From Convolutriloba macropyga (lineage: Eukaryota), in assembly GCF_964194025.1 (NCBI RefSeq), contig NC_134472.1:31434001-31498000 (forward strand): a stretch of DNA of 64,000 nt. The letters are read 5' to 3'. The notes under the pieces were generated by a model. That model was not told the origin of the DNA, did no database searches, and worked only from the letters and a program-made list of their open reading frames with translations. This document shows, one piece after another, positions 22,102 through 58,800 of this stretch. Position 1 is the stretch's first letter. Each line of letters starts with the position of its first letter. The position numbers and the translations under genes were made by a program.

Positions 22102-22276
22102 GTGCTATATACAACATAATTTTTAACTGGGGGTCATAAAAAACACTGGGGGGGGGAGGCGAAACAGATTAGATCCGATCATTTGATCGCGGATCCATGT
22201 GAAAACTGCAAGAGTACTTTGTTTTAAATCGTTATCTCATAAAATCATGCGATTTTTAAAACGTCATCACACACAC

Positions 22277-23253: not shown

Positions 23254-23291
23254 TTTCTTCCCTGAAGGTGAGATATTATTATAAGTTTGTT

Positions 23292-36299: not shown

Positions 36300-39200
36300 C
36301 TGTAATGTATGCAAACCTTTAGAAATTAATACTAAATCTTTAATAATTTTACTCCATTTTGATTTTGTTAAAATTTTCTCCACATTTTCTAAAAAATATC
36401 AAGTTGTTTCTCATCAACTATTGTGAAGAAATTGCATTCTGTATAAGCAATCAATTTCACAATTTTTTCATCATTAGATTTTCTGAAGACAATTTTTTCG
36501 ACGATCCCAGTTATTTGATTTTTGTTTACTCACATGCAATTTTAGGTTCAATTTTCCTATAATTGAATTTTTTGTTGTCTTCCTTTGCTTCTCATTCATC
36601 TCTTTTACAGTTGTTCAAGATTATCCGTACTAGTTGGCAGAAAAAAGTTATACCAAAAGTTTTACTGAAAATGTTTGATGCTCTCCACTTGCGACTATCA
36701 GTAGTAGTTGGAGAGCTGCCTCTTTTTCAGATTTTGCCAAATTGCCGTCAGGTTTCCAATATTTGTGAACAAAATAATTGATTAAGAAGTTTAGCATCAT
36801 TGATATTGGCCCGATAAGAATAGACTTTTTCCAGTTGTGTAATTGTGTATTTTTTTGACTGACACTGTCCGGATTGTTTGCAAATCTCGTAATATTTGTT
36901 CTACGACTTCATTTCGTTCGTCAAATGAGAGTCTTTGATACACAGGAAGACGTGCCATTTTAAAATGAGTTTACTCAATAAAATGTTAACATGCATTTAC
37001 TATTGTTGCCATATGAAGCTAATTGTCAATCGCATGTATTTTAGCAATCAAAAACTTGAGTGGGTCAGTAATACCTATGTCAATACTGTTGCCTGTCACT
37101 TTCTAACCCAAAAATATGTCCGCTCAAAATTCAGGAAATGTTGCCTGAATTTTCATTCAACACTCAAAAGGGATTTTCTATAGTGATGCCAAATTTTTCC
37201 GGGTTATTGGATCATTTTCTCTCATTCTTTTTTTTTGCTGACTGAGCTACATATAGGTAGTTGAAATGAATTGTATATTGAAGAGCTGGCCCGCGAGTCC
37301 TTTTGTTAGCCAATGGAACGTGTATAGCTTTGTAGAGATTTAGAACTGTTGCATCTGAAATCATTGGGAATATCAATGTTTTCCACAATATCCCCGTGTT
37401 CAGGTATTTCCGCTTTATCATATGCTAACAGCGGATTTGTTGACATCGTAGGTGATAATCGTTTGTTTGTAAGTTTTTGCAAACTGACTACTATTTCAAT
37501 AATTTTTCAAGCACTCTTCATGAAAGTAGTTCAGTTCGTACTTAATTTTTGACCTTTGTAAATACGGGACTAAAAAATGTTAGCCTGTAGCTAAAAACTG
37601 CTGGAAAGTATGAACTGATTTCACTTAACAGAGCAGATGACAGTACCATTAAATTGGTTTGCACTTGTAATACTTGGTCAAGGGTCTAGACGAGTCGATT
37701 GCAAATCTTCCTTTTTTTGAAGTTTTTAATATCAAGGTAAATGTTCCATTGAAAAACTCTGGCTTTTTTGGGATGCAATAGTTTTTGTGTTGAAAATTGT
37801 CCACATTTTCTGAGCGATGAATGACATTGCACATATTATCTTTGTTTTTCCTTTAATTTTAAATAATCGTCTATTGTATTTTCCATTTGATTCAACGCAA
37901 AATCACTGTTTTCTCTGTTTTGATTTCCCCTCCGCAAAAATAAAAGTTGATACCCAATGAGCAATCATTTGCCGAACATAGAGTGGCTGTTTTCAGGGCT
38001 GCAAATGCGATCATGGCTGAATGTTTTTGTCTAGACATTACTTTTTCTGTAAGTTTATTTTGCTCTCCAAGTGTTTTGTAAATTAGGGCATTTATTTTTA
38101 ACATTTTCACTTGAATTATTGAACGCGTGTGTGTGAATTATTGTTTGCAAATCTCGTAATATCGGTTCTACGACTTCATTTCGTTCGTCAAATGAGAGTC
38201 TTTGATACACAGGAAGATGTGCCATTTTAAAATGAGTTTACTCAATAAAATGTTAACCTGCATTTACTATTGTTGCCATATGAAGCTAATTGTCAATCGC
38301 ATGTATTTTAGCAATCAAAAACTTGAGTGGGTCAGTAATACCTATGTCAATACTGTTGCCTGTCACTTTCTAACCCAAAAATATGTCCGCTCAAAATTCA
38401 GGAAATGTTGCTTGAATTTTCATGCAACACTCAAAAGGGATTTTCTATAATGGAGCCAATTTTTTCCGGGTTAATGGATCGTTTTCTCTCATTCTGATCA
38501 AACACAGATTGAAGTTAGAGGTTGCGATGTAATGATATATTTGCCTTTGCCAGTGTTTCGAGCCTTTTCCTCGACGGCAGCTTCATAGATCTTCTTTCAC
38601 ACTTCCGGCAAGCACTGAAAGGACTGCCTAAAAAAGGGATACCAAAACAATTATCACAAGCAGTTTAAAACTAGAAGCCATTATACCAAATTGGAGAAAT
38701 TGCTTGAATCTACGCAACTGTCAATAAAATTTTTCGATACAAGAACAATTTTTTTTATTGTTGACTGAGCTACATATAGGTAGTTTAATTAAATTGTATA
38801 TTGAAGAGCTTGCCCTTGAGTCCTTTTGTTAGGCATTGGAACGTGTATAGCTTTGTAGAGATTTAGAACTGTTGCATCTGAAATCATTGGGAATATCAAT
38901 CTTTTCCACAATATCCACGTGTGCAAGCGTTTCCGCCTCATCATATGCTAACAGCGGATTTGTTGACATCGTAGGTGATAATTGTTTGTTTGTAAGTTTC
39001 TGCAAACTGACTACTATTTCAACATTTTTTCAAACACTCTTCATAAAAGTAGTTCAGTTCGTACTAATTTTTTGACCATTGTAAATATGGGACTAAAAAA
39101 TGTTAGCCTGTAGCTAAAAATTGCTGGAAAGTATGAACTGATTTCACTTAACAGAGCAGATGACAGTACCATTCAATTCGTTTGCACTTGTAACACTTGG

Positions 39201-39950
39201 TCATGGGTCTAGACGAGTCGATTGCAAATCTTCCTTTTTTTGAAGTTTTTGATATCAAGGTAAATGTTCCATTGAAAAATTTTTTGGGATGCAATAGTTT
39301 TGTGTTGAAAATTGTCCACATTTTTTGAGCGATGAATGACATTGCACATTTTATCTTTGTTTTTCCTTTAATTTTAAATAATCGTCTATTGTATTTTCCA
39401 TTTGATTCAACGCAAAATCACTGTTTTCTCTGTGTTGATTTGCCCCTCCGCAAAAATAAAAGTTGATACCCAATGAGCAATCATTTGCCGAACATAGAGT
39501 GGCTGTTTTCAGGGCTGCAAATGCGATCATGGCAGAACGTTTTTGTCTAGACATTACTTTTTCTGTAAGTTTATTTTGCTCTCCAAGTGTTTTGTAAATT
39601 AGGTCATTTATTTTTAACATTTTCAATTGAATTATTGAACGCGTGTCATTTTCAGTTAGCTCTTTTCACTGTAGGATCACATCTGCGTTCTGATTGACAT
39701 CACAAATTGTTCGAAAGCCTCAATAGGGCTTAGGTGTGCTGGCAAGCGGCCAAACTCAGAAATTTTTAATTGTTCGGTCTATATTTATAATCAATTTTAT
39801 CTTAAAAATATAATGAGTTTTTTCAATCTCACCTGTTTCGCAAAGATAGATTGATCTACTGTTTCAACCATATTTGGGTTAATCTTGTGTAGTAGATTCC
39901 TCTGTTTCAATTAGAATCTCTACATAATTGTTGACAAAAATCTCATTAGT
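36300..39950 (-). pseudogene. Decayed class I (F-type) viral envelope-like gene with internal tandem duplication
   Basis: Furin-like site RQKR followed by hydrophobic SAMIAFAAL..CS..CSLG..FCGG. Downstream LIFPMISDATVLNLYKAIHVP and EKARNTGKGKYIITS remnants. Many frameshifts. Confidence 0.6.
36873..39646. repeat. Direct tandem duplication (36873-38130 and 38140-39646)
   Basis: Near-identical ORF-track peptides occur in both copies. The left copy lacks ~255 bp present at ~38495-38750. Confidence 0.97.
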
Positions 39951-40118
39951 GAGCTCTGACATAAATTGTTTTACTTTTAACAATGTATAGACGTTTCTGA
40001 TACTCACTGACGTTTTGACTGATGACGTTTCACAAGCCGCGTTCCTAATTTTTTCAGAAAATTTTTGTTTTTTGAACTATATATTTTGAATATTTTGTTA
40101 TGCTAATATCATTTATGT

Positions 40119-40425
40119 AGTAAGCCAGAACCTAAGTGGGCTACTTTTACAGACTTCTGGTTTAAAGAGCTAGGGCTACTTATTTTTGCACGCGAAATAG
40201 GCTTACCTATATCTCTCAGACTAACAGACTCTGTAAAACAAAGAAGGTATATTTCAATTATAACGATGTACAAAAGAGTTCACACCGGAGTCAGAGGTAT
40301 ACACATTGTGCAACTACTCTAATAGACTGACTACAGTCGGCAGAGTTACTGCTATATAAAAAAGAATAGTGTCTTCTTAGTCTCTGATTGGTTGGCGGAG
40401 CACATCCAGTATTTCTAATGCTACA
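40119..40425 (-). repeat. 3' LTR
   Basis: Direct repeat of 55496-55802. The left boundary is uncertain by a few bp and no exact TSD was found. Confidence 0.92.
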
Positions 40426-40439
40426 TCCATCCGGGGTTT

Positions 40440-42930
40440 AGAGTTTTAAATCCGGATCTGTGAGTTGTATCGGAAATACGTCAGATGAGTGATCCTCGTT
40501 GTAGATGGAACTGAAGAAGAGCCGTGTTGTCGTGGCAGTGAAGTTGTGACCTGTGCCGTCGTCTAGAGTCCCTGTTAGTAGAGTGTTGACTAATGTCGTC
40601 AGTAAGTTATCCACTTCAGATGTGGTGCCAGTTACAGGGTGTGCTGGCCAATAACGTCAGTCCTGTCGAGCGTACCCAACTGTCTCTCACCGTTATGTAG
40701 TGAGGATTTACTCCCAGTTGGAGGATCGCTTTTAGTCTGTAGTCTCTGTCTAGTTGAACAAGGTGATTTCTGTTCATCTCCATCTGGTTCCGGGTTTTAC
40801 CGGTCAGATTTAACAGCTTACCTTCAGTTGAAAATCAATCTTTTAGCTACTGTGTGAGTTACTGGTTCTCTTAAACTTTTTGTGAGGTTTAGTGCCTGCT
40901 GAGTAAGCTCTGACCGGAGAAAAAAGAAAAGAACAGAACCTAATCTTCTTTTTAATTGTGGCAAAGAAGAAAAGAAAAAAAAGATTAAATACAGTGAAAA
41001 TAAAAAGAAACATAGAAATAAAGAAAAGATAACTTAACATGAGTTTGAGAACAGTGAGCCTCAAGTTTTGTGGGTCAGTGAGTACCAGTGGTAGGACTGT
41101 GGCTTACGTCTGGAACTCGAATTCGAAATCAAGGGCTCGGTTGTCCGGATCCCTGAAGAATTCAAGAAAATCCTTGTCTCGTGCAAGAAAAGCGGCAAGC
41201 GCACGTGTGTAGAGATCGATGTTGATGTGGGGTTGCAACGCTAGAAGGTGGTTGAGGATCTGTGTTCCATCTGGTGTTGGTTCCAGAATGGCCAGCTTGT
41301 CCACCATCCAGTCCCTGTAGGGGAGATTGATTGTGTGTCCGTACATGCGCGTTGTTGCGCCTCGCTCTACACGCTAAAAGTATTCAATGAGGACAAGGAT
41401 CGGGCGATGCGTTTTCGCGTAAAATGGGACAAACAAGAAATAATTTTTAATAGGGTCGAAGTTGCGGAGTGTTTCTTCGCAGTAAGTGGGATTAATTGTA
41501 TAGCTATAGTTCCATTAGTAGGTTGACGCGAGTTTAGTGTTGGCATACTGGAGGCGTGAATTCATTTGAACAAGAGCGTTAGTCCAATGAAAGTGGTGTT
41601 GGACGAAGAGATAATTGCGTATTGTGTGTAGCATATTTGTCTTGTTGACTTTGTGAGTTTGTTTGTTTAAATCCATTTAGTTTTTTATGCAAAAAACCAA
41701 ACTAAAGATAGAGGGATTCGTATTTTTGGTACAAGCGGTAGGGGGTGACATCTTTCGTGAAAAGTGTTTTCAGATAGTTGTTCTGACAATCTGCTAGTGC
41801 AACGAAATATTTGGATAGGTGCCAAAAACGCTCTGTGAAGCGGGGAAAAATTGTAAATTGAAGGCACTCCAGTGGGAGTTCCCTAAACCGTCCTGCTTCT
41901 ACATACTCCTTTCTCAACTGTCACAATGAGAATGAGCTTGCCGTTGGTTTCAACGTGTGGCGGAGTGAAAACATAGTTAATCCTCTTGGGGAAATAAACA
42001 CCCTGATCCCTGTTGATGCCCAGAGAGTTTGTGAATTGTAGAAATTTAAATTGTGGACCCGTTGCTTTGTGTAGCACTCCTTGTGTAGGGGCGAAGGGGT
42101 TGACTAGACCCATTGAAAATGGGGTCTGTGGGCCTCTGGAAGGGCTGGCGATGTACCGTGCAAGTGATTGTGAGGCCTGAATTGGGGAAGAGGGGACCGA
42201 GTAGATCTCATGCTTCATAGTCCTGGGCCGTCTCTTTGGGTAAGGATCCGTGCAAAAATAATTTTCGGTTGATGTCGGCCGATCATAAGGAGGGGTTGGG
42301 GGAAGTCAGTTGAGCTCAATTTGTGGGATTGCTGGTCCATAACTGTGCACTGGTGGAGTGTTAGCTACGAATGACAATGGTATGGGCGTCACTGGTGGTG
42401 GGTAGGTCATTGGCTGGCTACGCGGTCTCGAATTCGGCTTGATTAGGCTCAATTGGGGACCACTGTTTTGGGTGTTCAGCGGCCCGATTGTTACGCAGCG
42501 ACATCATCAGCCCAGGGAGAGCTTTATGGGGGTTGAGTTGGTAGCTGTGGCGCCAAAATGACGGCTGTGATGCCAGTGAAAATAGTTGTTGTGACTTTGG
42601 CACCGGCTGGGAGGCTTGGAACAAAAGTTATTGTGACGAACTTGTGGATACCATTTGTGTTGGCGGGCTCCTGTTGCTCTCGATGTATGAATGTAATTCC
42701 CCTGACAACGAAAAAGAAGTGGCGGGTGAAGGCAACGTATTCACCGGCGCATGAGTTGCTGAGTCCACGAACTGTGGCTATGGAGAAGCTTGGGCCAACG
42801 TGAAGAGGGTCAGCGTTTGCATCTCGCACACAAGTTCTGGTACGGGGGGAGGCAGCACCAGAGGCGTAAGAGTGGAAGGCAGGATGTCGTCGACATCCAG
42901 CATTATGAGGTCGTAAGCCGTAGGGTCGAC
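40440..42930 (-). pseudogene. 3' accessory ORF block (GC-richer, Pro/Thr-rich, unassigned)
   Basis: Fragments 42524-42829, 41883-42218, 41702-41917 and 41104-41346, preceded by a strong splice acceptor. Confidence 0.55.
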
Positions 42931-43299
42931 ATTTGGTGGGATGGGTGACCCTCCCTCTTGTTTGCCAGGAGTGAGAGTTGCGGTGTCGCTAAAATAAATT
43001 AAAAAGTTAAATTTGAGTATTTGATAAGTTTGAGATCAGTTCTTATGGGATTTCCTGACACTCAGGAACATTCTCAAAAAATCCTCAGAAAATGATATTG
43101 AACGTTAGCATTTACGTTTTCTAGACTGAAAAGTGTGTTAATGCAACGACTGAAAATCAAGATTTCGATGTGATTCTATCGGTAACTCAAAGCATTCATT
43201 TATAAATGTGGGGAGAGTAGAGGCCTTGTGCTTTTTGGAGTTATTGTCTACTGGAGAGGAAAATTTTTTATAAAAATTCTCAAACTTTCAGCGAAATAG

Positions 43300-45593
43300 A
43301 TTCAATCAATTTTGAGAATTCGAAGTGCTAATATCGACAGAGTGCTCACGTCTTGTCTCAGGCGATGGTGGGTTTTTTGTGTAGCGTCTGATTGTATTAC
43401 ATGAAAGATTGTCCGTGAGAATACTCCAAGAAATTCAGAAGTGATAATCTCAGCTAATGTGATATGCGGACTTGAGAGTGATTTGAGATTGTATGCGTTA
43501 AATGCGCTACAAAATAGTGCAAATAGGCATTTTTAAAAACTAAATACAGTCCATATATTAGCTATTTCTTTCAATAAGTACCAAGTATATCCAAAGATTC
43601 CGATGAAGGATTTTTTTCAATAGTTGCCGTTGATTAAATCACGCCAACCGAGACGGCAAAGTGTATTTTTTTTCTTAATAAAGAATTTGTTAAAACAATT
43701 GTTGTAACGACTTTGTAACTGTAAGAATTGTGCTTGTAATTGTCTGCAAAATTAACTGCTTGTGCTAATTCAAATTGCTCGGCGCCGTCATCTACTAATT
43801 GTTAAATTTATTTTTTTCTATTGAATTTGTCCAGTCTCTTTGACTATATATGCCAAGTTGTTCTGCAGTAAAAACCGCGTGGGTGAAGCGGTTTTCAGCT
43901 TCGTCAGGGGTGAAATTTTCAACGGGGTTTTGAGCTCTAAATGGGTAAGGCGTTAAGCGGAATGACTCATCACCATCTGGATCGAGTAATATTTGTTGAT
44001 CAAAATTTCAAGCTCTACATAGTGTTTTAATAGACCAAGGAAAAGTCTTGCGTGTTACTTGATCTACAAATTCAAGTTTATTTTGATAAAATATGGTAAT
44101 AAGTTCCAAAGATTGGTTTTCTAGATCATAAAGTGGCGAAGAGATAGTTCTACCTTGAAAAAGTGAAAGCACATCTGATATTATTAGCGTAGCGAATGTA
44201 TTTCGCTGTCCTGTGATAAAATATCCAACAAGTGAAAGTTTTTGTGTTAACAGAAAAGGGGCGGTCTGTATTAGATCTCTTTATAGAGTTTTTTATAATA
44301 AACTGATAGATTTTTGTAGTACAATTAAAATTAAACTCTGCTGTTCATATAGTCGAAATTAGCGTCAATCTGTACATTAGGATTAACAGCACCGAACCTA
44401 TTTTGTTTTTATTAAAAAGATAGTATTTTTCAGTTTTACGGTATATTGGAAATTCTTGTGGAAACCTCGTTACGGATATCTGCTTTAGTGTACCGTGTTA
44501 TTGAAGGTGCTTTATTTAGTACGGCTAAGTGTACGTCCTTAAATTTTGTGAAGGCTTTGCAGTGACAAAATTAAAACCTTCGTGTTTTTTGTATAAAAAC
44601 ATCTTGATATTGTGTTCCGTATCAAAGGTGATCCTCATTGCATATATAAATAGGTTTAGTGAGTACTTCATAAAGAGAGAATGCTAATTCATCATAGAGA
44701 TGGTTTTTTTGAAAACAACTATTAAACCTGTGTGCGTTTCATTATTTGCTAGTGTTTCATTAAAATGGAGTTTTTGAAATTTAATCATGCGTGCGTGAGA
44801 TCCACCAACCTCAATACTTCGAAAAAGAATATTTGGTTCCCAAATGAATTTGGCTTTAATAGCGTGATTAGGAGGGTAATAGCCTCTCAAAAGATCACAT
44901 TTATTACGTGTTTTATCATAATGGACACTTTCTGATTTAACTTCCAAACTAAGCGTGATGTTAGTTAATTGAAGTAACCATCTTAGTGTGTTATATGATA
45001 TATAACATAATTCCAAGTTTGAAGGCAAATGGTCGGTGGCGATCCAGCTGAAAACGGCCTTGTTTGGCTTCAGTGTTCACTTGCCAGCGTGGGTCGTTAA
45101 GTACATCAAATTGTATCATCTGTGCGTGTTAGTGATGTTTACTCACGAAACCAACGCGAGCAAAATCTCTACGAGCTTCAATTTCTGTGGGGAAGGAAGT
45201 TCTTTCCATATCGTTAACCTACCAATTATCGTGATCAAACCGGAAGCCCCTCCTAAGTGAGGTTTTGTGGTACAAATTTCTGTCGCAAAGTTATGCATAT
45301 ATAGCGTACGCGCGTACTTGAAGTGTTCGAATTTGTGAGAAGATAAAAACTTGCGCAGGGAGTATCTGGAAGTCTGCCGGTTTGATCTTACATTGGCCAA
45401 TCTTATTGAGTTTATAATACTGCATAATTGTGATATGCTGTGGTGAGCAATCATAGTGTGTTACAATTAAATCCTGAAATCCTGATTTGGGAGTAGAAAC
45501 GTTGCAATTATCAACCTTAATTGTTTGTTTTATGGGAAGTAAGAATAAAAAGAATAAATTAATTAGAAATAAGATCAAATTTGTAATAGTCAT
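43300..45593 (-). pseudogene. env: env: chuvirus/herpes gB-like (class III) glycoprotein, disrupted
   Basis: Signal peptide, then HYDCS...YKLNKIGQC, CDLLRGY....IWEP, ICNED..YGTQY.D.FI, ELITIFYQNKLEFVDQVTRK..C, QLGIYS. A hydrophobic remnant lies near 43500. Confidence 0.7.
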
Positions 45594-45699
45594 GTGTAAG
45601 AGAGTCCAGAGTGTGGGATGTAGAGGACCAAAAATCCTGCAGTGTTTTGTGTTTATCTATCAAATTTAAAGTGAATTTCTTGACAAATAAAGGATGAGG

Positions 45700-47676
45700 G
45701 ATTTGTTTTTACTCTAATTATAGCCGGAGCAGCAGCGTGTGGGTGAAAAATTAGTTTATCTTGTTCGACTACTATCTCAACAGAGAAATTAATCTTAGAT
45801 TGTTCAAGCATATCGTGTGCTCGTTGTGTTTTTACTGGTGTAATCTTGTATGATTTAGAGATTCGTTGTTTTGCGCAATTGTATAATTGTTCAAGGTTAT
45901 TATGATCTTCAAAAAGGCAGGTGGAAGAACTATAATTTTTGGATCTTTTTTAAATGCTTAAGTTGGGTAAGTTTGAGTGGCGTCAGGTTTTTTTTCCGAT
46001 ACATTTGAGAGAATGTTGGTCTGGATCTGGTGTGGGTGAATTTGAACTAAGAGTATTTATAGTTGGAGTACCCTGGATACTAAATGGTAGTGAGCTTTGA
46101 AAAGAAAGAGACGAATTGACTATATTGAATGAGTGAGTCCGGTGAGCTTGTGAAAGCAAACTTTCAATATTAGATACTGGTCCTTGTGGCGGATAAAAAG
46201 GATTATTTGCAATTTGTGAGGGAGTAAGTGACAAAAAATGTGAACTAATTGGATCAGAATTAAAGATGTCAGAGACATGACTGGTTTCTTGCGGAGCAGC
46301 TGCTATTGTAGAAACAAAATGAAGTGGCTGTGGCAATTCAGAACTACTAGTTTTATCTGTTAGCAAAATTAATCGGTTGAGTCAAAAATTGTGTTTTATT
46401 GGAATAATCAAGCAGTTCTAGTTCTTGTGCTCGTAGTGGAGCAGGTATGAATGGTGTTTGTTGTTGTAGAGTTGCGTTTATAAGAAAACTTGAGTATGGC
46501 AGAAAAGTTTGTGTATTTTTTTGTTGTTGTTGTGGTGTTTGCGCTTGTTGTATTTGCGTTTGACTTTGAGAGGTGGATATCGGATTACTAACTGAGGGGT
46601 AAAAAGGGGGGGGGTTCCTGTAGGACGAGGTCTATCTGTAGTTGTGGCAATAGTTTTGACTGAGTATGGATGTTCTTCTTTTTATTAAATAGTTTAAATG
46701 ATGACTTTTTAGGGATGGATTGTTTGGTAGTGTCACTGTACGAGCAACTTGGTGATTCTGAGACGGAGGTAGCTCTTGGGTTAGTATCGGGTTGTTGATT
46801 AGAGTACGCAATTTTGACGTTAATCGTTGGTCCAGAGTGGGGCAAAAATTACCATAGAATATCTTATAATGAGTGAAAGATGGAATAACAATTATTAATA
46901 AATTTATAGTAGGAATAATAAATTGGATTGCTGCAACGGTTGAATCTGGAGGGAGGACATTGTGTTGATAGATGAGATCTAAAAACTCAACAATAAAAAC
47001 TGTTAACAACTCTTCGAGCAAATGGTGTAATTTTTTTGAGAAATAATAGACAAATATTGAAAGGGTTGGTGATTCTGTTCTGTTTTTTTTAGAGTTGTTG
47101 GATTGTTCATCAAACATAAAAAGTTCTTCGTAAGAAGCTGGGACAGCATCCACTTTCAAAGTGTATACAATATTGTTATAGAGAAATTCACATAATTTGG
47201 GTGTTGATTGTGGAGGAAAAAGTGGAAGATAGAAGAGAGCAATATGTTTGTTGTTAAAGTCCCTTATATAAAAGACCCATTAACAACAAGTGTGTGGATA
47301 TAGTTGCTGGTCTAGGTTATAGAAAATATCTTGCAAACGTATTTGTTTTGTTTTAATATTTTGAATATACCATAAAGTATCAGCGTATGGGGTTGGTTCT
47401 ACAAAATAACACTTCAAGTCTGTGTTGTGAAGTAATTTGAATACTGTTTGTTCTATGAAGATCAGTTTGACTTTCAGTGCTGTGAGACTGAGAGTTGTGG
47501 ATTTTATGGAGGTGTACGCTGCTGTGAGCGAGTCTGTTCAATTTGTCCGTCTGTGAGCTATTTGATACTGCTTTTTTGTAGAGCTTGTTTGGACTAAGAA
47601 CTGTGCTGTGAGACAGTTCTGACTTTTCGAGAAAGAAAGTGAAAATTCCGGAAACAGAATTTTTTTTAGGAAACAT
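45700..47676 (-). pseudogene. Unassigned ORF block between integrase and env (globular part followed by Pro/Ser/Gln-rich part)
   Basis: Consecutive minus-strand fragments 47380-47676, 46632-47159, 46588-46845 and 45983-46366. Confidence 0.5.
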
Positions 47677-48293
47677 AGAAATTTTTATCTAAGTTAAGAA
47701 ATGAGATAGAGTGAAAAAGCGAGAGAGAAGTTGATAGAGTGAAGTTAGAATTTTATATTCAAAAAATAAGACAGAGAAGAAAGAAACATTTGAGTTGCAA
47801 ACAGGGTGGTCTGTGAAGTGACTTTAGACAATGCAGTTTAGCCTGACTACTACTTTTCTTAGGGGAGAAAAAACTTACCGAATCATACCTCGTTAAATTA
47901 TTCAGATTGGAGAATTATTCGCAGGCCGATCTGTGGGTAGGCTACTAACTTAAGTTTTGGTTTATTTACTTTCTTTTATTGTCGTCGGGAATGGCCTATA
48001 ATTCCCTATTTTTCATTTTCTGATGGAAGTTTATTGTGTTTCTGCCAGGGTAGCAGGTGGAAAGATAGTCCTCATGCTTTGTTCGCCTTATGGAGGGTCT
48101 TTGTTATTTTTTCCAAGGAAAGGTATTGTGAAGAAAATGAGAAGGGTGAAAGAACTATTCGAATTATCCCACTCGTATAAAAAACTGGGAAATTATAATT
48201 TTAGTCTATTTCTATACGGGGTGTTTAGTGTGTTATGCTAATTTGCATTGGGCTAAGGAGAGCGAGAGGCAATTCTGTGTGTTGCAGTAGTGG

Positions 48294-48325
48294 TATATAC
48301 ATACATACATATATATATATATATT

Positions 48326-48350
<25 letters not shown>
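48294..48350. repeat. (TA)n microsatellite
   Basis: Seen directly in the sequence. Confidence 0.95.
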
Positions 48351-48358
<8 letters not shown>

Positions 48359-48649
48359 ATATATGTATGTGTGTTTGAGAACTCTGCGTTGTTCTTGAAG
48401 CCCAAATTTTTGACTGTGATATGAAGGCTCTGTAATCTTTTGTCGGTTGTTTACGTGAACGATTGTCTCTAGTATTGTAGTTTTTCGAACTTTTTTCGGG
48501 TATTTCAGACAAACTGTAAGATGGCGGGGGAAAGTTCATTATTTGATGGTATGTCTGGGTTGTTTAGACTAAACGAGACAGATTTCGACTTTGTGATAGC
48601 GGGTTTTTTAGGGTGAAGTCGTAAAAATGAGTGGTCGGAAAAGTATTTT

Positions 48650-51600
48650 TCCTTCTGTTCTTGAATGAAGAGTTCTTTAGGGTAATATTAGTTACTTCGG
48701 TGATGGGTTATTTGTTTACCTGAAAAGTCCTCTAGTTTATATGTGACTAAAGTGGGAGTATCAATTATTTTGGAGGGTCCGACCTTTTGTAGTTGGATCT
48801 TCCTTGAAGTACCAATTTGTGGATTTTTATTTACATTAGTAACATAACTGTTAATTTTAAGTGGTTGAACCGTTCCGAACCGGCAATTTATGAACGTGCC
48901 TAAATGTTTATTCCCATTTAAATAAATTTGGAATTCGTTATACACTTCTGAGTGTATTTCCTCGCGATTTAGAAACCATTGTGCAAAGGTTCCTTCTCTT
49001 TTTTAATTTAAACTTTTTAATTTGGCGATGATGTTTAAGATGATTGATTTCTGTATGTTTTGTGAAGGAGTGGCACGGTGAGTTTTGTGAAGTCCGGGAG
49101 TTGCCAAAGCTATCTCTAGTTGAAGATAGAGTAAACATTTTTGGCTTTTTGGTGTTATGTCAAAGACGAGTTCATAAGGTGAAAGGTTCATGTTTGTTCT
49201 AATTTGTGAGTTAAATTCGAAGGGAAATGTTTTCAGCTTTTAAGACCATGTGTCGTACTGTGAATTTAAAACTGTGCATAAAAATGTATTTGGTTGGCGA
49301 TTGCCTTTTTTCTACTAGTCCATTGGACCGTGGTGCACTCAGTGTGCGTGGTTTAAATTGTACGTTGTATATGGGGCAAAATTGTGTAATTTCGCCCTTA
49401 ATAAAATGATTTCCATTATCAGTTACTAGAATATCAGGTATTCCGAATATAACTATCCAATTATCGAATAGTAACTTTAATGCTTTTGCTGCATCATTTT
49501 TCGGATTAGGACGGAGGACAACATTGTGTGTGAATGCATCAACAATTACATATACATAAGAGTTTCCGTATGAAGGTGGAGAGATTGCGCCTTTCGGGTC
49601 TAGAGAAATACAGTGGTTGAATTAAGGTGAAACTTTTTAAAATGGCTGTTGTGGTACCATAATAAGATTTGGCATGGTTAAGCTGGTTTGGCAATTTAAG
49701 CAATCATGTGTAAAGATTGCTATCCATGTTTTGATATTTGGAAAAAAATATGTTTCTGTTATTGTAGCATAGGTTTTGTCACGGTTGGTATGACCTGAAA
49801 TATCATGTGAATGTGCGACATGCAATACAGTTAGTAGAAAGGAAAGTGGTAAAAATATTTTATGTGATATAAAATAATGATTAGTTCCGTTTATGCTTAG
49901 ATTCGGAAAACGTCTATAATAGTGTAGCAGTCCCTTGATTGCTCGGACTGTTAACGAAGGGAGAGAGGAGCGGTTTTTGTTTTTTTTTGCAAAAAAGAAG
50001 TTGTCTTAAAACAGAATACTTTTGTTGAGTTTCTTGTAAAAATGTATCGGTTACTTCTGTCTGTTTGTCAAAGAAATAACTAAATATTTCTGGTGACTTA
50101 GGTATGAAATCATCCATTGCTGGGAGTGAAAATTTGATGCTATTTATTGAATCTGCATCATTTGCCTTTTGAGTATCTGGTGTGAATGGTTCTGTTTCAT
50201 TTGTATTCAGTGTAACATCTGTTTGTTTTACAATAGGATACGTTTCTAAGTGTGAATTGCCTTGTTTCAATTGTTGTTTTTTGTGATAATGGACAAGTTC
50301 TAGAGGTTGTGCTTTTGTTTTATATTCGTGGTATGAAAGGGGAAGATACAAATTGTTCTCTGGTTGTACTTTAAAATAGTCTTCTTTGATTTGTAGGTAT
50401 ATTGGAAAGTGTGGTGATTCTACAGCAATGTCTGTAGTTACTGTGTTATTGTATTCTTTTGATAAAGCATAGTGGCACTGCATCGGTTGAGTTTGTGGAT
50501 TATGTGTCATTAAGATTTTTATTGTATCGGGAGTTTCTACTATCCGTAGACGATGCACGTTTTGTGTTGTCGTTGAAAGTCAACGACCTAATATATCCGG
50601 AAGTGAAAGGTTATTGCCTTCCGTCCGAACTATAAGTAAGGAAATTTCATATTAGGAAATTTTATAAATATTAACTGGAATTCAAAAATTTTGAGATTTG
50701 GATTGCTCTTTTTATATAAATGAAACGAGCATGGGTTTGTGATCAAAATACAGGATAATATTGTGTTGTGACTCTTGGATAAAAAAATTCATAATCAGAG
50801 AGTGCGTAAATTACTGCAAAACGTTCACCAAGAAAATAAGCGAGAGATTGGGGAAACTAGTTCCAATTTTCCAAATTGTTTGTTCCAAATTGTTTTCCAA
50901 GTGCCGCTCCGATGCTATAGTTTGATGCATAACGTGGAATATAAAAGGGATTATCTGAACTAAGGAACGCTAGGCGTAGAGTGCCATCTGTAATTTTCTT
51001 TTTTTACTCTATCAAATGTTTCAGAGTCCGTTTAAAATTTACCGTATCTCGAAGATGAAGGTAGAAAGTTCTCAATTTAAATTGTAGGTTATAAAAGTTT
51101 TGAGATAAAGTTGAGAAAACCAACATATTTTTGTATTTCTTTTTTATTTTTTGGTGGTTTTAGTTTTAAGAATCCGTCTATTTTTGAAAAAGAAGGATTT
51201 ATTTGAAAGATTTAAGATTACACTTTAAGAATTTCGTTTTTGAGAATATTGTGATATTGTTCAAGTGTTTCCAACATTGTTTCTGTTATAGTGTCTTGAA
51301 CAAAAACATCTTCAAGATATTTGATAATTTAGTTTTTGCGGAATAGTGATTTAAATATACTACTTATAAAGGATGAGAAGACGGCTGGGCCAATAGAGAT
51401 ACCATATAATGAGCCTTTACGTCAAAATTATTGTTCTGCGATGACGAAATTAGTAAGTAGTTGTAACGGTTTGTCTAGCGGCTTTTGATTATATGTTCTA
51501 TTCATATCGGATAAAGAGAAAACTGGGCCTTTGATGCGTGTAAGTATTATTTGTATCAGCCCTATTGGCCAATTACATTTGGTTTTGTCAATCATTGTGT

Positions 51601-52850
51601 TCATCTGACGAGCGTCCAAGACAATTTTAAGTGACTCCCTTTTTAGAGTATAATTACAGGATTAATAAAGTTGTTCCCTGCAGTGAGAGAATCCGTATTT
51701 ACAGCTGCAGCAATATCTAAATGTGTCGACATGTCGAGTAAATGTTATACTCTTTCCTGTAATTGCAGAGGTATACGAGTAACTCGTTGCTTTTTAAATA
51801 CTGCTTCTGCCTTCAAAGAGAGATTTAATTCTACTTTGATTTTTCCTACATCAAATTTAGATGTAGCATAGCAATTTTTATATCTTATTAAAAGTTGTGC
51901 TAATTGTTCAAATTGTGTTTGTTATAGTCTAAAGTGTTCAAAATTGGAGATTGTGAGAAAAATACTGTCTGTTTTTGTGAACGTAGAGATATCAGATAGT
52001 ATGTGGAACGTTTTCTGTTGTGCTTTGTATTCAGGTGCTTGTTGCTTGGTGAGATTTAAGCAATAGAATTTTCTTTAGTGTTTCTGATGTAACGTATGTA
52101 ACGTAATTTAAAGTATAGGCATCCTTGAAATCTCTGAGTTCATTGACATGGTATTTTGTTGTATGAAACTCTTTGATTGAAAAATCTTGTTGCGCGTATC
52201 CAATCAATCAATTAACGAGTGTTAGTGGGTGATCTAAAGATTTTTGTCTAAGAATTTGAATGAACGATTGGTAAGAATATTCGAGTTTACTGATATCCAT
52301 TATAGAAAAACACATATTTCTATGGTGGTATAACTGAGAAATCAGATTTAAAAATTATACTTCCATTTGCATATTTGTTTTCACATTCGTATGCAGTAAG
52401 TGAATAAATTAGGATTTTGTGCTAAAAAATTGGAAAAAGTATGAGTGATCACCATCAATAGGAAATAATCGTGAATAGCATGGAGGTGATTCTGTTGAGC
52501 AATCATAGATATCATAGAAGGATTCAACATATTGTTCTAAAAATTCTGTTCCTAAATTAAAAAATTTTGGGTTTGAAACGTGAAAGGTGAGTTTTAAATT
52601 TAAATTAAGAGAAATCCTGTGTTCCGTTACCTCTGGTTAAAAAATAAGCTTTACTGATCCATTTGATTGTAATTTAGTGTTATTTGCTGCAATGCTGATG
52701 CTTTCAATTGTAATTCGTGGTACTCTCTGATTTCATTCCAAGTGTCTTTATCTAATACATTAAGCATTAAATGTAGCCCCCGAGTCTATTAACAAATCAA
52801 TTCCAAGTTGTGGTGGAGAAATTGTATTTGTAAAGTCGGGTGTCTGTTGT
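48650..52850 (-). pseudogene. pol: pol: protease, RT, RNase H, integrase (disrupted)
   Basis: LLIDSGAT at ~52786; YGISIGPAVF and YLEDVF at 51319; RNase H (Y)ASNYSIGAAL and DHKP; HHCC HSHDISGH...CLNCQ; IPDILVTDNG; GP-motif VGPSKII. Confidence 0.92.
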
Positions 52851-52999
52851 GTATACATTGTAAGTTGTTGTAACCAAGTATTACTTTCACACGATGCAGA
52901 ACGGATATATTCTTCTATGAGAGTATCTCATTTTTCCTGACAATTAAAATATACGTCTTGTGTATCTTAATTTAGTTCAAAAAGTAAATAATTGAATTG

Positions 53000-55303
53000 T
53001 TGTTCTAGAAGTTGTGCTTCTGAAACACTTTGTGTTTCCATATGTTCTATGTTGGACGTTGTATCATCTGTTTGTTCTATACGGTTGTTCTAGAGGTCTG
53101 GTCTAGAAGTGAATTAATATAATTTCTAAGGCGATTACGTAGAAGAGTCGTTGTGAACGATTACCATCTCTATTATAATTAGGTGATTGTGGTCTAGAGT
53201 TACTAGAGTAATTGTTGTTATTATTAAAGTTGGGCTTTTTCTGGGAATTTAGTTGTCTTGGGTAGGTTGAATCTGAACTACTTGGTGGCTTAAAGTAATC
53301 GTTTCCATAATAAGGTTTTGAGTTTGTAATTGATGATTTATTAGGACTTATGTGTCGAGAAGTGTCGCGATTGTCTCTACTGTTGCTCCTAGAGCGATAG
53401 GGTCATGGTAGTGTTTTAGCAGTCATATTCTTTGATGTGACTTGTCTGTTCGGGAGATTTTGATTCCCTTTCGTTACTTGATTGAAAGGTTGTTTTGAAA
53501 ACTTAGGTGTATCAATTGGTTTTGCATATTATTTGTCAGGGCAAATCGAAATACTTTGTCCTGATCATGAACATTTTTTACTAAATTTAAGGAAGAGTGG
53601 TTTTCTTTTAAACTTTGGATTATTTGAGCACTTGTGTAGTACTACATTGATTCTGGACTTTGTGAGTGGAGTTTGAGTGGAATTTGTGTTTATTTTTTTG
53701 TCAATCTATGTGTGTTCCAGTGATATCTTCCAGATGTATTTTGTCCACTAATTGATCAAAAGGAATCTGTGGTTCCAATGCAGTTAATTTGAGACATGCG
53801 ATCTTTTTAAGGGCTATTCGAACTAATTGCGAATCAAGTGTTTTGACAAGTGCGTCATTCATTTGTGTATTTCTCATATCAGGAGCATTTTTAACAAATG
53901 CTTTTTGAGCAGTTTCTTCAATTCTAAGTGCTAATGTTTTTATCTGTTCTCGAGAGGCACGCGTTATGCTTTCTAATAGTAATTTCGTATGTTTTTGCGA
54001 ATGTTGGTTATCAAAGGTCTTTTGAAATTCTCGGCACGAACCTTGCCATTCTTCCATAATCTCTAATGGCAAATGTGAATAGCATTGTTGTTGGTCCGAA
54101 TTATGTGTCAGATCAGTTGAATTCACAGGTTGTCTCTGATTTTCCTAAATCTTTTTGTTGCTAGGAGTGTCATTTACGGTAGCATTAGTGTTTATATTAT
54201 TGTTGTTAGTGTTATTGTGTTTTTCAAGGTCAATTAATGAGAGATTGTTTACAGTATCTGATGACAAAAGTGTTTCATCTTCTAATAGTCTGGAATTTAC
54301 ATCTATTTCTGTGGTTTTGTGTCTCTTGATCGTGAAACGACTATAGTCTCTATATTATCTGTAGGTTATTCTTCAAGAAATGTATTAGTGTTTTCTGGAA
54401 TGTTTGTAAAATTGACTGCTTGTTTTTCGGCGTTTTTTTTTAGTTTTAAAATTATTGTTGTCAACTGTTAGTTTTTGAATGATTCCTGATGAAACTTCTG
54501 TAATACTTTTAAAATTTTCAGGAATTCAATTTGAATCATAAATATTGTGTAGTGTTTCCGGCAAATTATCCATCAAGTGTGCGTACGTGTCGCCTATTAG
54601 TTTTGTAGCCTGGAAAATATGTTTTACTAAGCTTTTCCAAATTCTGAATGAGTACCAGGACAAAAGCGCGAGAAAATCTTTTATTTCCTCTTGCGGTAAA
54701 TCTGCGTCTTTTGCAGAGCTTATGTCTGTTTTTAGAAGGTGAGTGAAACCGTCTATTTTTTGTCTAGCAATTTTTTATGCTCGTTTTCTTTTCGTGATTG
54801 TAAAGCGGCGGTATTAAGTGCTGGCGCTAGGCGCTTTAGAAATTCGAATGACAGTTGGTTAAACACAGTTGAAGGTTGTAATTCTGTCTAAACTCCGTTG
54901 AGAAGTTCAAATAATGTGTATGGTAGTGGCTTAAATAATGTAAATCATATATGCATGGAACATAAGTTGTGTTTCATAGATCAGAGATAAAAAGAATTGA
55001 GCCCTTTGTGAGTTGAGCTCCATAAATTTCGATTAAGTGTGAGGGGAAAGCTATTCCTAATATTTGTGAATCTTTATCTGGTAAAGTAAGAAGAGGCTGC
55101 TAATCTATTGCAAAAAAATTGATTTTAGGTTGTTTTGCTGTGTTTAAAAGTAAATTTAATTCGTCTTGGTGATGATGTTGTGCAACTTTAAATGGTAAGA
55201 TTTCGTATATAAGAGTTTTGTTCGGTTGTGTAAGAACAGTTAATTGTAATTTATTGGAATGTGGGTCCGATTTTGATGACGTTTGGCCAGTGTGACGGCT
55301 CAT
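53000..55303 (-). pseudogene. gag: gag region with a long N-terminal extension or separate upstream ORF
   Basis: Capsid-like EQIKTLALRIEETAQKAF segment (53701-54126), degenerate zinc knuckle (S)KKCS*SGQSISIC near 53585-53540, Arg/Ser/Asn-rich tail. Disrupted ORF begins at 55303. Confidence 0.7.
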
Positions 55304-55480
55304 TTTGTTAATACTAGTGAAATTATTTTATTTTCTGAACTATTTGTAGGGTTGTGTTGCCTGTTTTCCTAATTTTAAACGTAAGAAAATTATGAAATTA
55401 TATAAACTAGTTGTAAGTTTCTTTCTCAACAGAGAATAGCTTGTTTTTCGTGAGTTCTTTTTACGGTTAGAGTTTGTTAA

Positions 55481-55496
55481 CTCACTGTTCGCACCA
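55481..55496 (-). promoter_or_regulatory. Primer-binding site TGGTGCGAACAG(TGAG)
   Basis: TGG-initiated sequence abutting the 5' LTR. The cognate tRNA was not identified. Confidence 0.75.
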
Positions 55497-55802
55497 GTTT
55501 AGGCAGACCCGAAGTGGGTTCCTTTTACAACTTTAAGGTATGAATAGCTAGGGATACTGTTTTTGCGCGCGAAGTAGGCTTACTTATATTTCTCACACTA
55601 AACGAATCTGTAAAACACTGAAGGTATACTTCAATTATAATGATGTACAAAAGAGTTTACACTGGAGTCAGAGGTATACACATTGTGCAACTACTCTAAT
55701 AGACTGACTAGAGTCAGTAGAGTTACTGCTATATGAAAGAAAATAGTGTGTTCTCAAACTCTGATTGGTTGGAGGAGCACATCCAGTATTTGTAATGCTA
55801 CA
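55496..55802 (-). repeat. 5' LTR
   Basis: Starts TGTAGCATT on the minus strand. Has a CCAAT box and TATA-like motif. About 85% identical by eye to 40119-40425. Confidence 0.92.
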
Positions 55803-58800
55803 ATAGCTTTGGACAATTTTTGTCCAGTCAAAAAATAGTATGACTAACTTTAAGAATTCTTCATTATATTGATTTTTAACATTTTAATACTATTAGCAAA
55901 TTTGAAATGTTTTTGTCCATACTCTCAGTTTCTGTATTTGAAAATCCTAACTGGTTATTCAAATTTAACAGAGCAGACTAGAATTCAATTTTCCAAAATT
56001 TTCACAAAAAATTATTTTTTTCAATGGCCCAAAATTTAGATCCAAAACCGTTCAATACCAACCCTTAATTGTGCAACTCAGAACTTGGCTTTCAATTTTT
56101 GGGAACAAATCATAGCAAAACATGATCAAATGGGGTCTTCTAGTTTGCTGCGACACGCTTCGGACAACAATCAATCAACTGACGAAAATCACATGCATAA
56201 ACTATATTCATATATTTAGAAGTTAGAGAAGTTGAATTATGGAGATCAATGTTCATTTCTCTCATATAAAAACAAAAATCGCGAGTGTAAACGCTACCCA
56301 ACATTGAGTCTAATCTGCAAAAAAAATCTGGTTTATTGATAGAAGATTAATTTCGTAAAGCTGAGTTTCGATGTTGACAGAGTTTCGATGTCCAGATGAT
56401 AGACGGGTAAATCCGCTTTGAATAAACTCGTCCATAGTCACCACCTTATATACATTACTCAAAACATAGGATGCAAAAACAACGCAGTCTGACTCACCAG
56501 GGGGAACGATATCCGAAGCAAAAATCCTGACAGGGTGAAAAATTTAAGAGAGAGTCACTACCCAACCGTTTTTCACGTAAGCAAATCAGAGTTCGTTTTG
56601 CGTTTCAGCTCTCAATGAGTAGGGCGAGTTCATCAAGTTTATTTGATCTATAGTTTAAATGTAACACCCAAGTATTTGCTCCAAGATTCTCTGTCAAAGT
56701 GGCCGATAAAATTTTGATTTTTTAAATAAATTTTGGTTCATACTACTAAAAGCATTGTTTATCAGATTATGATCCCATTTCTGCGATTAATAAAAATTAT
56801 CAGAATTTATGATTATCTTATTAAACGCAGCGGTTTTTGTCTTTCACTAAAAAGTCGTTTACATCGGCTTTTTCGCCCAAGGTTTTAAATATTCTTGTAC
56901 GGGGTGAAGTAATGACCTCGTTTTTGTATATATCCGTATTTTCAGATGGATGATCTTTCAACTTCATATGCTTCATCGGATAGACATTTTGTTTCTTGTC
57001 ACAGTTTACTATAATAGGCCTTCGACGAAAGACTTTTGAAGGAAGATGCTGAAGCACATTTTTATCGTCTCTTCCTACTTCAGCTCCTTTGCCACCCACA
57101 GCCTGCAACGGATCTTCAAAGGGATCAACCTTTTCAGTATCAACAATTCCAAACACTCAGATGCGTCGGTGATGAACCTGTTCGAGTGCATCAGCTTCGA
57201 GCGAGCGAGAATTCGTAGGTAGAGTTGAATCCGCTTTCTTCTTCGGAGTTTCAGTTTTTTATCGGGACAACATCTACAAAGAAAAGAGCTCGAGAAAAAC
57301 GGATCATGGAATCTTTGGGAACGCCAGTTCTGTCCCGGCAATGAATCTGTTGCCGTCGGGTCTTGGTCCAGTACACTCAATTTCATGCTTACTTCCTTCA
57401 GAATTTACAGACTTAGAAGCTGACTTTACCGAAAAAGGTCATTTTTCTCCTTTTTTCACTGTTCTCTATAAGTTCACCAATACTGATAAAAGATACCAAC
57501 TCTAGTTTACTTGATATGAACGCTCTGATTAGTGACGGTACTTACCGAAGATTGCAAACAGCGAGGGCACAACCTACCCTACCCGGCTTTAAGATTGTGC
57601 TTAGGCGCACAGAAATGGAACACTTCTTTGTCCCCTGCTTTCGATGCTGGAGATTAAATACCATATAACATCAACAAATATGAAATTAAAATGAATCAGG
57701 ATCATAAAGTCTCCAAAATACCCAAGGTCATAAAGTCTACTGTTATTGATACCTACTGAAATTAGTGTTATCTTTAATTTCAGAAGTTGTATACCAATGA
57801 AGCATAAGAAGATCATACAGGATGTTGCACACCACAAGTTTAGAAGAACAAGTAAGTCACGACTTTTCAATGGCAAATTAGAGAAAATTTTGATCAAAAA
57901 ATGAATATACATAGGGTTATGAGACGCAATTTTTCTCAAAAATTTTGGAAAATAGGGGAAAAATTGCAATTGCAGAACACCTGCAATATGCCAGGCAAAC
58001 TTTCAACGTTTTTACAAAGTCTATGGTATTCCTACAACATAGCTGGAACATCAGATTTCGATAGAAGAAAAAAATTAGGAGGACCATGTGCTGCTATCAA
58101 TCTAATTTTTCATACCCGAGAACTTTGTTCACATCTAAATAGCTTTTTGATTTCTATCTTAAATTCCCACGTTTTATACGCGATTAATTTTAGTGGGACA
58201 AACTCCACTAATTTTGGGAAAAATTGCCGAGAATGATTTTCCAGAGTGACAACAACTGTCTGCGTGTTGCGGAGCCTTACAGAAATTTGAATACAAAATT
58301 AAATACGAATGACTTGAGACAGAAAACACACAACTGAAAAAACCCTTCACATATGTCTGCGCAAGCCCACCATCAACACTCGAGACGATTAGCAAAGCCG
58401 AGAATTAACTCTAGATTAGTGCCAAAAATATGTTGCCTCTAACAAAATTTTTTAGAGCATGTTTTTGAATTTTTTAAAAGTTCTCCTAAAACAAAAACCT
58501 TTGAGTTCAAAATTTTTTAGACTTCCATTCAAAACTTCTAATTGTTTCAAAATAGTTAAAATAAAACAAAAACTTAATTAAAAAATTATTTAATTAACAT
58601 TGCACTATTTAACACACATATGGTCCACATGATTCAAGCAATCGCAAACAGTTTCAGTTTTTATATTGACTGTTTTTTATTTGTAGTCTCTCCACTTTAA
58701 AACCTATAATTATTTTATTACATCCTTCCTAGGCATTCTAGAAGATATCCCAAAAATCAAAAGAAGCAAAGTGAGATTCAAATGACCCACCATTTTCCCC

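Follow-up and report, generated by a model that had tools for sequence, protein, structure and literature searches.

Introduction

Gypsy elements that carry an envelope gene (env) have been described as gag-pol-env elements only, and accessory regulatory genes, such as Tas/Bet and Tat/Rev, are usually seen as a mark of the complex vertebrate retroviruses. Here, a Ty3/Gypsy retrotransposon found in a stretch of 64,000 nucleotides of the genome of Convolutriloba macropyga (hereafter the window; contig NC_134472.1, positions 31,434,001 to 31,498,000 of the forward strand) is compared with the closest described systems. An env of the glycoprotein B (gB) type in invertebrate Gypsy elements has already been described (Chary & Hayashi, PMC13524379), in a survey whose prefilter took regions of ≤10 kb with short gaps, whose main text carries no discussion of accessory open reading frames (ORFs), and in which the longest span between long terminal repeats (LTRs) is about 13.3 kb among 72 of the 1,512 table rows. 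Giant, high-copy Gypsy elements with env homology and accessory coding sequence are known from planarians as Burro/GYPSM1; as described in PMC6431247, they encode a single huge polyprotein, in which env lies in frame between gag and pol and the host domains BIR, MATH and BCL2 are recognisable. The env-bearing, Gypsy-like Tor elements of Oikopleura express env from spliced mRNA or from internal promoters, by their published description (PMC4402516).

The analysis presented below leads us to regard the window element as belonging to an abundant Ty3/Gypsy lineage with a gB-type env and accessory genes under selection, likely an enveloped endogenous virus, with predicted spliced and partly polycistronic 3′ mRNAs; for a Gypsy element of invertebrate type such a layout would be uncommonly virus-like. 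Taken as a whole this reading is moderately probable; the anatomy on which it builds is, in our judgement, very nearly certain.

Anatomy of the element

The region 40121–55802, minus strand, is one insertion of a Ty3/Gypsy LTR retrotransposon, as judged from its LTRs, target-site duplication (TSD) and primer-binding site (PBS). Its features, in the order of the minus strand, are the following.

55499–55802, minus strand: 5′ LTR of a 304/305-bp LTR pair; TG start, with the end TTA in the family and TAA in the window copy
within 55499–55802, minus strand: 5′ LTR motifs, namely CCAAT and TATA-like boxes and a conserved splice-donor motif, degraded in this LTR
55584–55683, minus strand: LTR-internal leader ORF of 33 codons, hydrophobic, ending at the donor motif, a predicted leader exon; stop in the window copy
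55481–55496, minus strand: PBS, complementary to the 3′ end of host tRNA-Met(CAT), after a 2-nt spacer behind the 5′ LTR
48390–55303, minus strand: gag-pol, one frame of ~2,500 aa in the family, broken in the window
47446–48389, minus strand: non-coding spacer, more conserved than synonymous sites, with acceptor-like sites and a (TA)n microsatellite at ~48295–48370
47070–47442, minus strand: ORF2a, ~128 aa, directly after a conserved CAG|GT site; start codon lost in the window
46815–47110, minus strand: ORF2b, ~100 aa, more weakly selected, in overlap with the ORF2a end, with a conserved T-rich acceptor-like site inside
45575–46812, minus strand: ORF-X, methionine-free, with a conserved ATT as predicted start; its end overlaps the env start
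43007–45593, minus strand: env, with signal peptide, putative gB/chuvirus-type (class III) ectodomain, transmembrane helix and long cytoplasmic tail; broken in the window
41104–42988, minus strand: ORF-Y, ~600 aa, with a conserved T-rich acceptor immediately behind the env stop (42989) and the first ATG at 42903
40426–41103, minus strand: 3′ non-coding region, with a conserved donor-like motif at ~40821 and a conserved motif at the polypurine-tract position adjoining the LTR
40121–40425, minus strand: 3′ LTR, TG…TTA ends
40117–40120, unstranded: TSD, partner at 55803–55806; CTAT/CTAC, one mismatch

An earlier note on this DNA had announced two LTRs of ~305 bp and a PBS, which were located at 55499–55802, 40121–40425 and 55496–55481, respectively. 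The LTR identity, estimated there by eye at ~85%, was measured as 88.0% (264/300); the right end given, 55802, stood, and the left end, 40119, was 2 bp off, the element ending in …TTA at 40121 with the TSD next to it. The LTRs share one 4-bp TSD with a single mismatch, which speaks for a single insertion rather than two LTRs from separate ones. Among ten independent family-A insertions (family A being that of the window element), the TSD was exact in seven and had one mismatch in three, including the window. The copy was correctly called dead: stops and frameshifts interrupt every main gene, with ~52 stops in gag-pol, 25 in env, 11 in ORF-Y and 5 in ORF-X, counted in tblastn pieces. Because long pieces of the window recur letter for letter in public contigs, possibly from the source sample, these breaks are not taken for assembly errors.

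The tRNA matching the PBS gave 164 matches with at most one mismatch in the host genome, against 0 for a reversed control, and three of four ARAGORN calls (two loci) identified it as tRNA-Met(CAT). Long tandem arrays of this tRNA-Met-like gene, with a period of ~0.5–1 kb, were observed at G000:C1:77668000-77750000 and C4:55026000-55077000; one unit of these arrays was called tRNA-Thr(CGT) by its anticodon.

First-look searches of the genome returned 1,689 candidate matches for the LTR, 2,159 for ORF-Y and 3,091 for env, figures that are not copy numbers. The first five copies were collinear with the window over the regions that they hold, and four independent copies showed 66–79% identity over the whole length. 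The copy on the small contig C1345 has its flanks in common with the window at 87–89% and is the same insertion, not an independent one. At G000:C1345:4338-22751 (L002, L007, L011, L012), element and flanks alike are 85–89% identical to window 38570-57289, so that this copy is either a very divergent haplotype or an old duplication of the same insertion. Two LTRs were present in 13 of 15 family-A copies, with LTR-pair identities of 89–100%; 11 of these 13 have lengths of 15.1–17.1 kb, and the remaining two, at ~10.8 kb, bear internal deletions.

Gathering genomic copies to restore the ORFs, as had been advised, was fruitful, natural open frames in young copies giving the anatomy directly. In young family-A copies the order is gag-pol (~2,500 aa), a spacer of ~0.9 kb, ORF2a (128 aa), ORF2b, ORF-X (~430–440 aa), env (~880–910 aa) and ORF-Y (596 aa from the first ATG), about 14.0 of 16.5 kb being coding. 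The previously unassigned 2-kb block proved to be three frames (ORF2a, ORF2b and ORF-X, 47442–45575); of the 2.5-kb 3′ block, described there as coding-like, 1.9 kb corresponds to ORF-Y and ~0.7 kb has no coding signal, no selected frame for a further ORF being found in the 3′ non-coding region. The ~1 kb of sequence ahead of the capsid, taken for a separate ORF, consists of ~500 codons in frame with gag, and an env was indeed found behind pol, at 45593–43007, matching the gB/chuvirus-type family PF24664. A 215-aa ORF fusing 2a and 2b, seen in the window, was rejected as a product of decay: in most of the other copies, read by eye, the frame of 2a ends at the junction.

In the family-A spacer, at window ~48095-48000 (minus strand), a conserved acceptor-like site is followed by a frame of ~28 codons with a basic stretch. 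This frame ends at one shared stop in roughly half of the copies, has a ratio of nonsynonymous to synonymous differences (pN/pS) of ~0.5, and is possibly a small peptide exon.

Gag-pol and classification of the element

Gag-pol begins with a ~300-aa N-terminal domain of no known family and a ~220-aa disordered linker, followed by capsid, a CCHC-type knuckle, protease (DSG at ~52788), a spacer domain, reverse transcriptase (RT, ~51850), RNase H (RH, to ~50670), a bridge and integrase (~49860–48390). Searches of natural family-A copies against Pfam identified capsid, knuckle, RT, RNase H and integrase, bearing out the gag, protease, RT, RNase H and integrase order read from the window; this pol order is that of Ty3/Gypsy (Metaviridae). 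The pol families were of Gypsy type (RT_RNaseH, RT_RNaseH_2, Integrase_H2C2 and, weakly, SH3_Tf2-1), and the solved structures nearest to the RT were 4ol8 and Ty3 Gag-Pol 7q5b (E ~1e-27), ahead of entries of foamy virus or murine leukaemia virus type. The LTRs, the tRNA PBS and the 4-bp TSD agree with what is expected of Ty3/Gypsy (TSD of 4–6 bp). The termini are TG…TTA in family A and in B, the sister family in the same genome, instead of TG…CA, a rule stated in PMC12440569 for most, not all, LTR elements. Troyka elements, described in the same source, likewise have non-standard LTR ends, namely CG…CG with a 3-bp TSD, as against TG…TTA and 4 bp here.

Other assignments were at odds with the domain content. 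A single Gypsy-type RNase H lies directly behind the RT and env is of class III, which separates the element from Retroviridae; and Pfam returned only Retrotrans_gag/Ty3_capsid and Gypsy-type pol families, which separates it from Belpaoviridae (BEL/Pao, Anakin). The earlier description of a retrovirus-like lineage with accessory genes thus holds for the env-bearing, accessory-ORF architecture, which is family-wide, and fails for the retroviral affiliation, given an RT nearest to Ty3 and a single RNase H. On its domains the element is a member of Gypsy/Metaviridae, not a retrovirus.

In a quick RT-RH tree of 67 database matches, from which most near-identical matches of a third family were omitted and which contained no named reference elements, the families and an outer group formed a long-branch clade of 19 of the 67 rows, with a support of 100 in the approximate likelihood-ratio test (SH-aLRT). 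The one outer-group Gag examined, P0249, begins directly at the capsid; on this comparison the N-terminal extension of Gag seems specific to the giant subclade.

Between protease and RT, a ~120-aa domain (window ~52450-52100, minus strand) is conserved in all families. It resembles a degenerate dUTPase fold, a likeness for which solved structures gave no match.

Family B and wider relatives

A distant ORF-Y match, P0019, led to family B, which is abundant in the same genome. Its elements measure 21.1 kb, have LTR pairs 99.5% identical, the same PBS and TG…TTA termini, and an exact 4-bp TSD in the two cases of two. Families A and B are deeply split: identity is 41–45% over gag-pol as a whole, 61% in RT-RH, 29% over 805 aa of env, 33% over 261 aa of Y and 41% over the 120 aa of the X C-terminal domain. 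Family-B gag-pol is open as one frame of 2,559 codons in several copies, and the order gag-pol, small ORFs, X, env, Y is common to both families. Between pol and X, family B has one ORF of ~160–180 aa, two hydrophobic peptides (58 and 50 aa) and one ORF of 88 aa.

An example of family B is found at G000:C8:30068287-30089418; the family is larger and younger than family A and very abundant, and a non-coding spacer of ~3 kb and four small ORFs precede X. Family-B matches are concentrated in narrow mid-contig intervals of large contigs, which suggests a regional insertion preference.

A profile search with ORF-Y gave 222 proteins at E ≤ 0.001, some lineages being only 27–39% identical to their best match in the host genome; that genome also lacks a third family with a long gag-pol (2,740 aa). 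Judged by these protein matches, through which it is known there, the lineage is present in other genomes too. No related loci were found in IMG/VR or in JGI metagenomes.

Selection on the accessory genes

The ratio of nonsynonymous to synonymous substitution rates (dN/dS) was computed pairwise for up to 13 copies against one natural copy; the copies are related and the values are not independent tests, which weighs against the reading that they are used to support. In gag-pol, dN/dS was 0.10–0.25 for the N-terminal domain of Gag, 0.07–0.18 for the linker and 0.03–0.11 for RT-RH; ORF2a gave 0.05–0.16, ORF2b 0.12–0.64, X 0.03–0.31, env 0.07–0.18 (one value for the env tail was 0.76), the N-terminal part of Y 0.10–0.18 and the Y domain 0.05 (a single unsaturated pair). 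By contrast, the non-coding spacer gave 0.75–1.23, and shifted frames mostly ≥1. Purifying selection on the N-terminal part of Gag, 2a, 2b, X, env and Y is shown by these values, the contrast with the control being uniform. This comparison across copies had been proposed beforehand, and it returned values far below 1 for the main extra ORFs and about 1 for the control.

These data bear on the proposal that the extra ORFs were taken up from a host or a virus as passengers with no role in the element's cycle, or that the 3′ half is a nested second element. Capture of ORFs between pol and env or behind env is documented in LTR elements (PMC6431247, as far as that description goes). Against it, all full-length copies examined are collinear, there is one TSD, the same order recurs in two deeply split families with dN/dS far below 1, and the extra ORFs have no host-gene or Pfam match; we regard this proposal as extremely improbable. 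A nested or chimeric insertion in particular is ruled out by the collinear copies and the one TSD: the segment at 40.4–48 kb, singled out as its possible trace, is integral to the element and is carried collinearly by other copies.

Proteins encoded behind pol

No family match for X, Y, 2a, 2b or the N-terminal domain of Gag was obtained in Pfam, PHROGs or solved-structure searches, and there were no usable matches in the ESM Atlas.

Env matched Monjiviricetes_fusion (PF24664) above the cut-off in both families (E 8e-14 in family A and 5.5e-11 in family B). It is a separate ORF with a signal peptide and a transmembrane helix by hydropathy, in agreement with a gB-type env, and is likely a class III fusogen, putative on the Pfam match. 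A search against solved sequences gave no match, and a single-sequence fold model (predicted local distance difference test, pLDDT, 32) was unusable for the five-domain gB fold or the cysteine pattern. The comparison with insect errantiviruses drawn in the earlier note is accordingly narrowed: env here is of gB/chuvirus class III, not of baculovirus-F type.

X consists of a disordered part rich in S, T, P and Q and a conserved C-terminal domain of ~125 aa, to which no search returned a match. Since X would be co-translated with env, a role in particle assembly or release may be suggested, as speculation.

ORF-Y encodes a Pro/Ser-rich disordered arm of ~320 aa and a domain of ~270 aa. A model of the domain from 55 sequences (mean pLDDT 51) predicts an SH3-like barrel, which matches Tudor, chromo-barrel, KOW and PWWP folds alike, with Z of 5–6.5. 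A nucleic-acid- or chromatin-binding regulator is proposed because Y is the last gene with its own acceptor and combines disorder with an SH3-like barrel; the fold itself shows no function. Several points weigh against this role: the model is of low confidence, Z below 8 may reflect a common fold, and no conserved aromatic cage is evident in the Y alignments, where aromatic residues are conserved in strands and not at the expected cage positions (alignment only). The regulatory role itself we regard as doubtful. An Sm/LSm fold, suggested by a motif likeness, was not supported, the fold lists giving Tudor/KOW-type barrels instead, and a MutL-like match to ORF-Y had E 1.3 only.

Predicted expression of the 3′ genes

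The LTR splice-donor motif is kept in 11/11 mapped copies, and the same donor is present in family B. Acceptor-like sites are kept before 2a in 9/9 copies, inside 2b in 11/11 and after the env stop in 10/11, and family B has an acceptor just before Y. The leader ORF, whose ATG lies 100 or 109 nt before the donor, is open at 24 of 32 family-A donor sites (some LTRs being counted twice) and is in phase with the 2a and 2b acceptor sites. These motifs make it quite probable that splicing from the LTR donor to downstream acceptors would give subgenomic mRNAs. Some points tell against the reading. The leader ORF has dN/dS of ~1 and is absent from family B; the codons between the Y acceptor and the first ATG of Y are under selection (pN/pS 0.03), yet the phase of this acceptor does not match that of the LTR donor, which leaves the true first exon of Y unexplained; and no homologue of 2a or 2b is detectable among the small ORFs of family B. 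A micro-exon before ORF2a that would mend the phase of Y was rejected, its lengths varying modulo 3 across copies.

ORF-X lacks in-frame methionine altogether, with none in 430/440 codons in family A and none in 379 codons of four family-B copies, as compared with 5–6 in disordered control regions of 220–319 aa. Selection follows the X frame from its start, where ATT-GC-TC (peptide IASS) is identical in both families. In family A, the ATT has A at −3 in 10/11 copies (G in one) and G at +4 in 11/11; in family B, it has a purine at −3 and G at +4 in 5/5 mapped copies, one further copy not mapping. Of the 150 best family-B matches, most have X as an open frame of 385–396 codons. From the ATT to the env ATG, 1.1–1.3 kb contain 0–6 ATGs, a density of 0–4.9 per kb where the other ORFs have 10–21 per kb; the depletion has p ≤ 0.016 in 8/11 family-A copies and ≤ 0.031 in 5/5 family-B copies by codon shuffling. 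Family B has, ahead of X, a second ATT-started ORF (88 aa) with no ATG in 7/7 copies. A reverse-transcribing virus, rice tungro bacilliform virus (RTBV), provides a precedent in its description in PMC5902531, with an AUU start and leaky scanning over 900 AUG-free nt.

On this evidence we lean towards a start of X at AUU, with leaky scanning into env. Some observations argue the other way, however. The stricter synonymous shuffle gave p < 0.05 in only 4/11 family-A and 2/5 family-B copies; the family-A non-coding spacer is also ATG-poor (3.5 per kb), and family-B gag also passes the codon-shuffle test (p 0.009). Most copies retain 1–6 out-of-frame ATGs between the X start and env, and the context of the env AUG is weak (C at −3).

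In family A, moreover, the 2b frame is open ~110 codons into X, and in several copies a U_UUA_AAC heptamer lies in the right phase for X to be reached by −1 ribosomal frameshifting as a 2b–X fusion. The X frame, though, is already selected ~140 nt upstream of the heptamer (pN/pS 0.16–0.17, against 2.1–2.6 in the 2b frame), the phase of the heptamer is lost in some copies, no conserved structure follows it, and family B has no open frame overlapping the X start, so that frameshifting appears very unlikely. Conserved RNA structure in two low-divergence patches was also considered and rejected, compensatory changes being seen in 1/28 and 0/11 pairs.

A more serious competitor places internal promoters behind pol as the source of env and X, with X starting from an upstream exon and not at AUU. 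An internal promoter starts the env mRNAs of Tor3b/4b, as described in PMC4402516; the spacer behind pol, with its conservation, contains repeated TCAGTC motifs that resemble the consensus of an initiator element, one such motif lies within a patch of low synonymous divergence inside X, and an internal start would likewise favour an AUG-poor leader before env. It leaves unexplained, however, the identical ATT-GC(G)-TC start in two families whose synonymous sites are saturated; in family B a stop lies in frame a few codons upstream of the ATT, and no AG is kept at one position; and the LTR donor is kept in both families. We consider internal promotion unlikely, though clearly ahead of frameshifting.

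Under the AUU start and LTR-donor splicing, expression may be pictured as follows. The unspliced LTR transcript would yield Gag-Pol and would be packaged and reverse-transcribed with a tRNA-Met primer, while splicing of the LTR donor to acceptors behind pol would give three messages, one for 2a/2b, one for X and env, and one for Y. On the second of these, some ribosomes would start X at AUU and the rest would scan ~1.2 kb of almost AUG-free sequence to the env AUG, the balance between the two fixing the X:Env ratio. Env could carry particles between cells, for example from soma to germ line. Y, from the most-spliced RNA, might use its SH3-like barrel and disordered arm to act as a Tat/Rev/Tas-like regulator or to counteract silencing.

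Surroundings of the insertion

The host assembly measures 1.18 Gb, and the genes neighbouring the element look like intron-poor animal genes. Long intron-poor frames at window 10191-11171, 13796-14449 and 17678-23295 are presumably those of phosphopantothenate-cysteine ligase, mitochondrial GrpE and CLPTM1. The window also contains a ~170-bp higher-order tandem repeat (26800-31050), a local duplication adjoining the 3′ end of the element (36870-39650) and a ~70-bp tandem array (59590-60930).

Comparison with known systems

The suggestion that the lineage might be undescribed stands for the gene set and the predicted expression layout, which appear new, and falls for what is already known, namely gB-env Gypsy elements (PMC13524379) and giant Gypsy elements with accessory ORFs (PMC6431247), as far as these sources describe them. 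In the open full-text literature, a scope outside which Repbase and subscription papers lie, neither this gene set nor polycistronic expression based on AUU was found described for such an element.

In comparison with Burro, as published, env is here a separate 3′ gene and the extra ORFs have no known family; for Tor elements, no genes comparable to X and Y appear in the published description cited above. Bdelloid rotifer LTR elements also add ORFs to invertebrate Gypsy, but their varied ORF3s, in the account of PMC5408684, are known enzymes or F-type env, unlike those here. RTBV and badnaviruses resemble the predicted layout in an AUU-started ORF, an AUG-free stretch across which leaky scanning reaches a downstream gene, splicing of the mRNA for the last gene and a tRNA-Met primer (described in PMC5902531); they are plant pararetroviruses with no LTR integration or env, and the likeness is one of analogy only.

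Complex retroviruses and foamy-like endogenous retroviruses of fish (up to 17 kb, according to PMC6431247) are alike in having accessory genes on both sides of env, towards pol and towards the 3′ LTR, and a major donor near the 5′ end. They differ in a Retroviridae pol with a second RNase H and a class I env, and no sequence link was found. Tentatively, and as a possibility more than an expectation, a giant clade of Metaviridae may have arrived independently at the organisation of complex retroviruses, with an LTR donor, an AUU-started cassette leading into a class III env, and a trans-regulator Y with a Tudor/KOW-type barrel. If so, the clade would be thriving, one of its families would encode a hydrophobic leader exon within the LTR, and X and Y would be new protein families, present in more than one host genome and at least as well conserved as the envelope. 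Extra genes under strong selection, kept by a high-copy lineage across a deep split, supply two new protein families and a natural case of predicted, conserved AUU initiation in an animal retroelement; they also offer a system in which the control of splicing, export or host silencing by gB-type endogenous viruses can be tested.

A close likeness is to the "ancient errantiviruses" with a gB-type env like that of herpes simplex virus (HSV), which, in the description of PMC13524379, have in common with the present families a Ty3/Gypsy pol, the order gag-pol-env, a gB/chuvirus-like env of class III, multi-copy families of young age in invertebrates and an extra bridge between RNase H and integrase. 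The window PBS and five env motifs were looked for in the tables of that paper and were not found there. Surveys of Gypsy elements with env that filter by length can thus overlook the largest of them. By contrast with those elements as described, the present ones reach 16–21 kb, have ~2.8 kb (family A) or ~5.5 kb (family B) between pol and env, and carry a gene of ~600 aa behind env.

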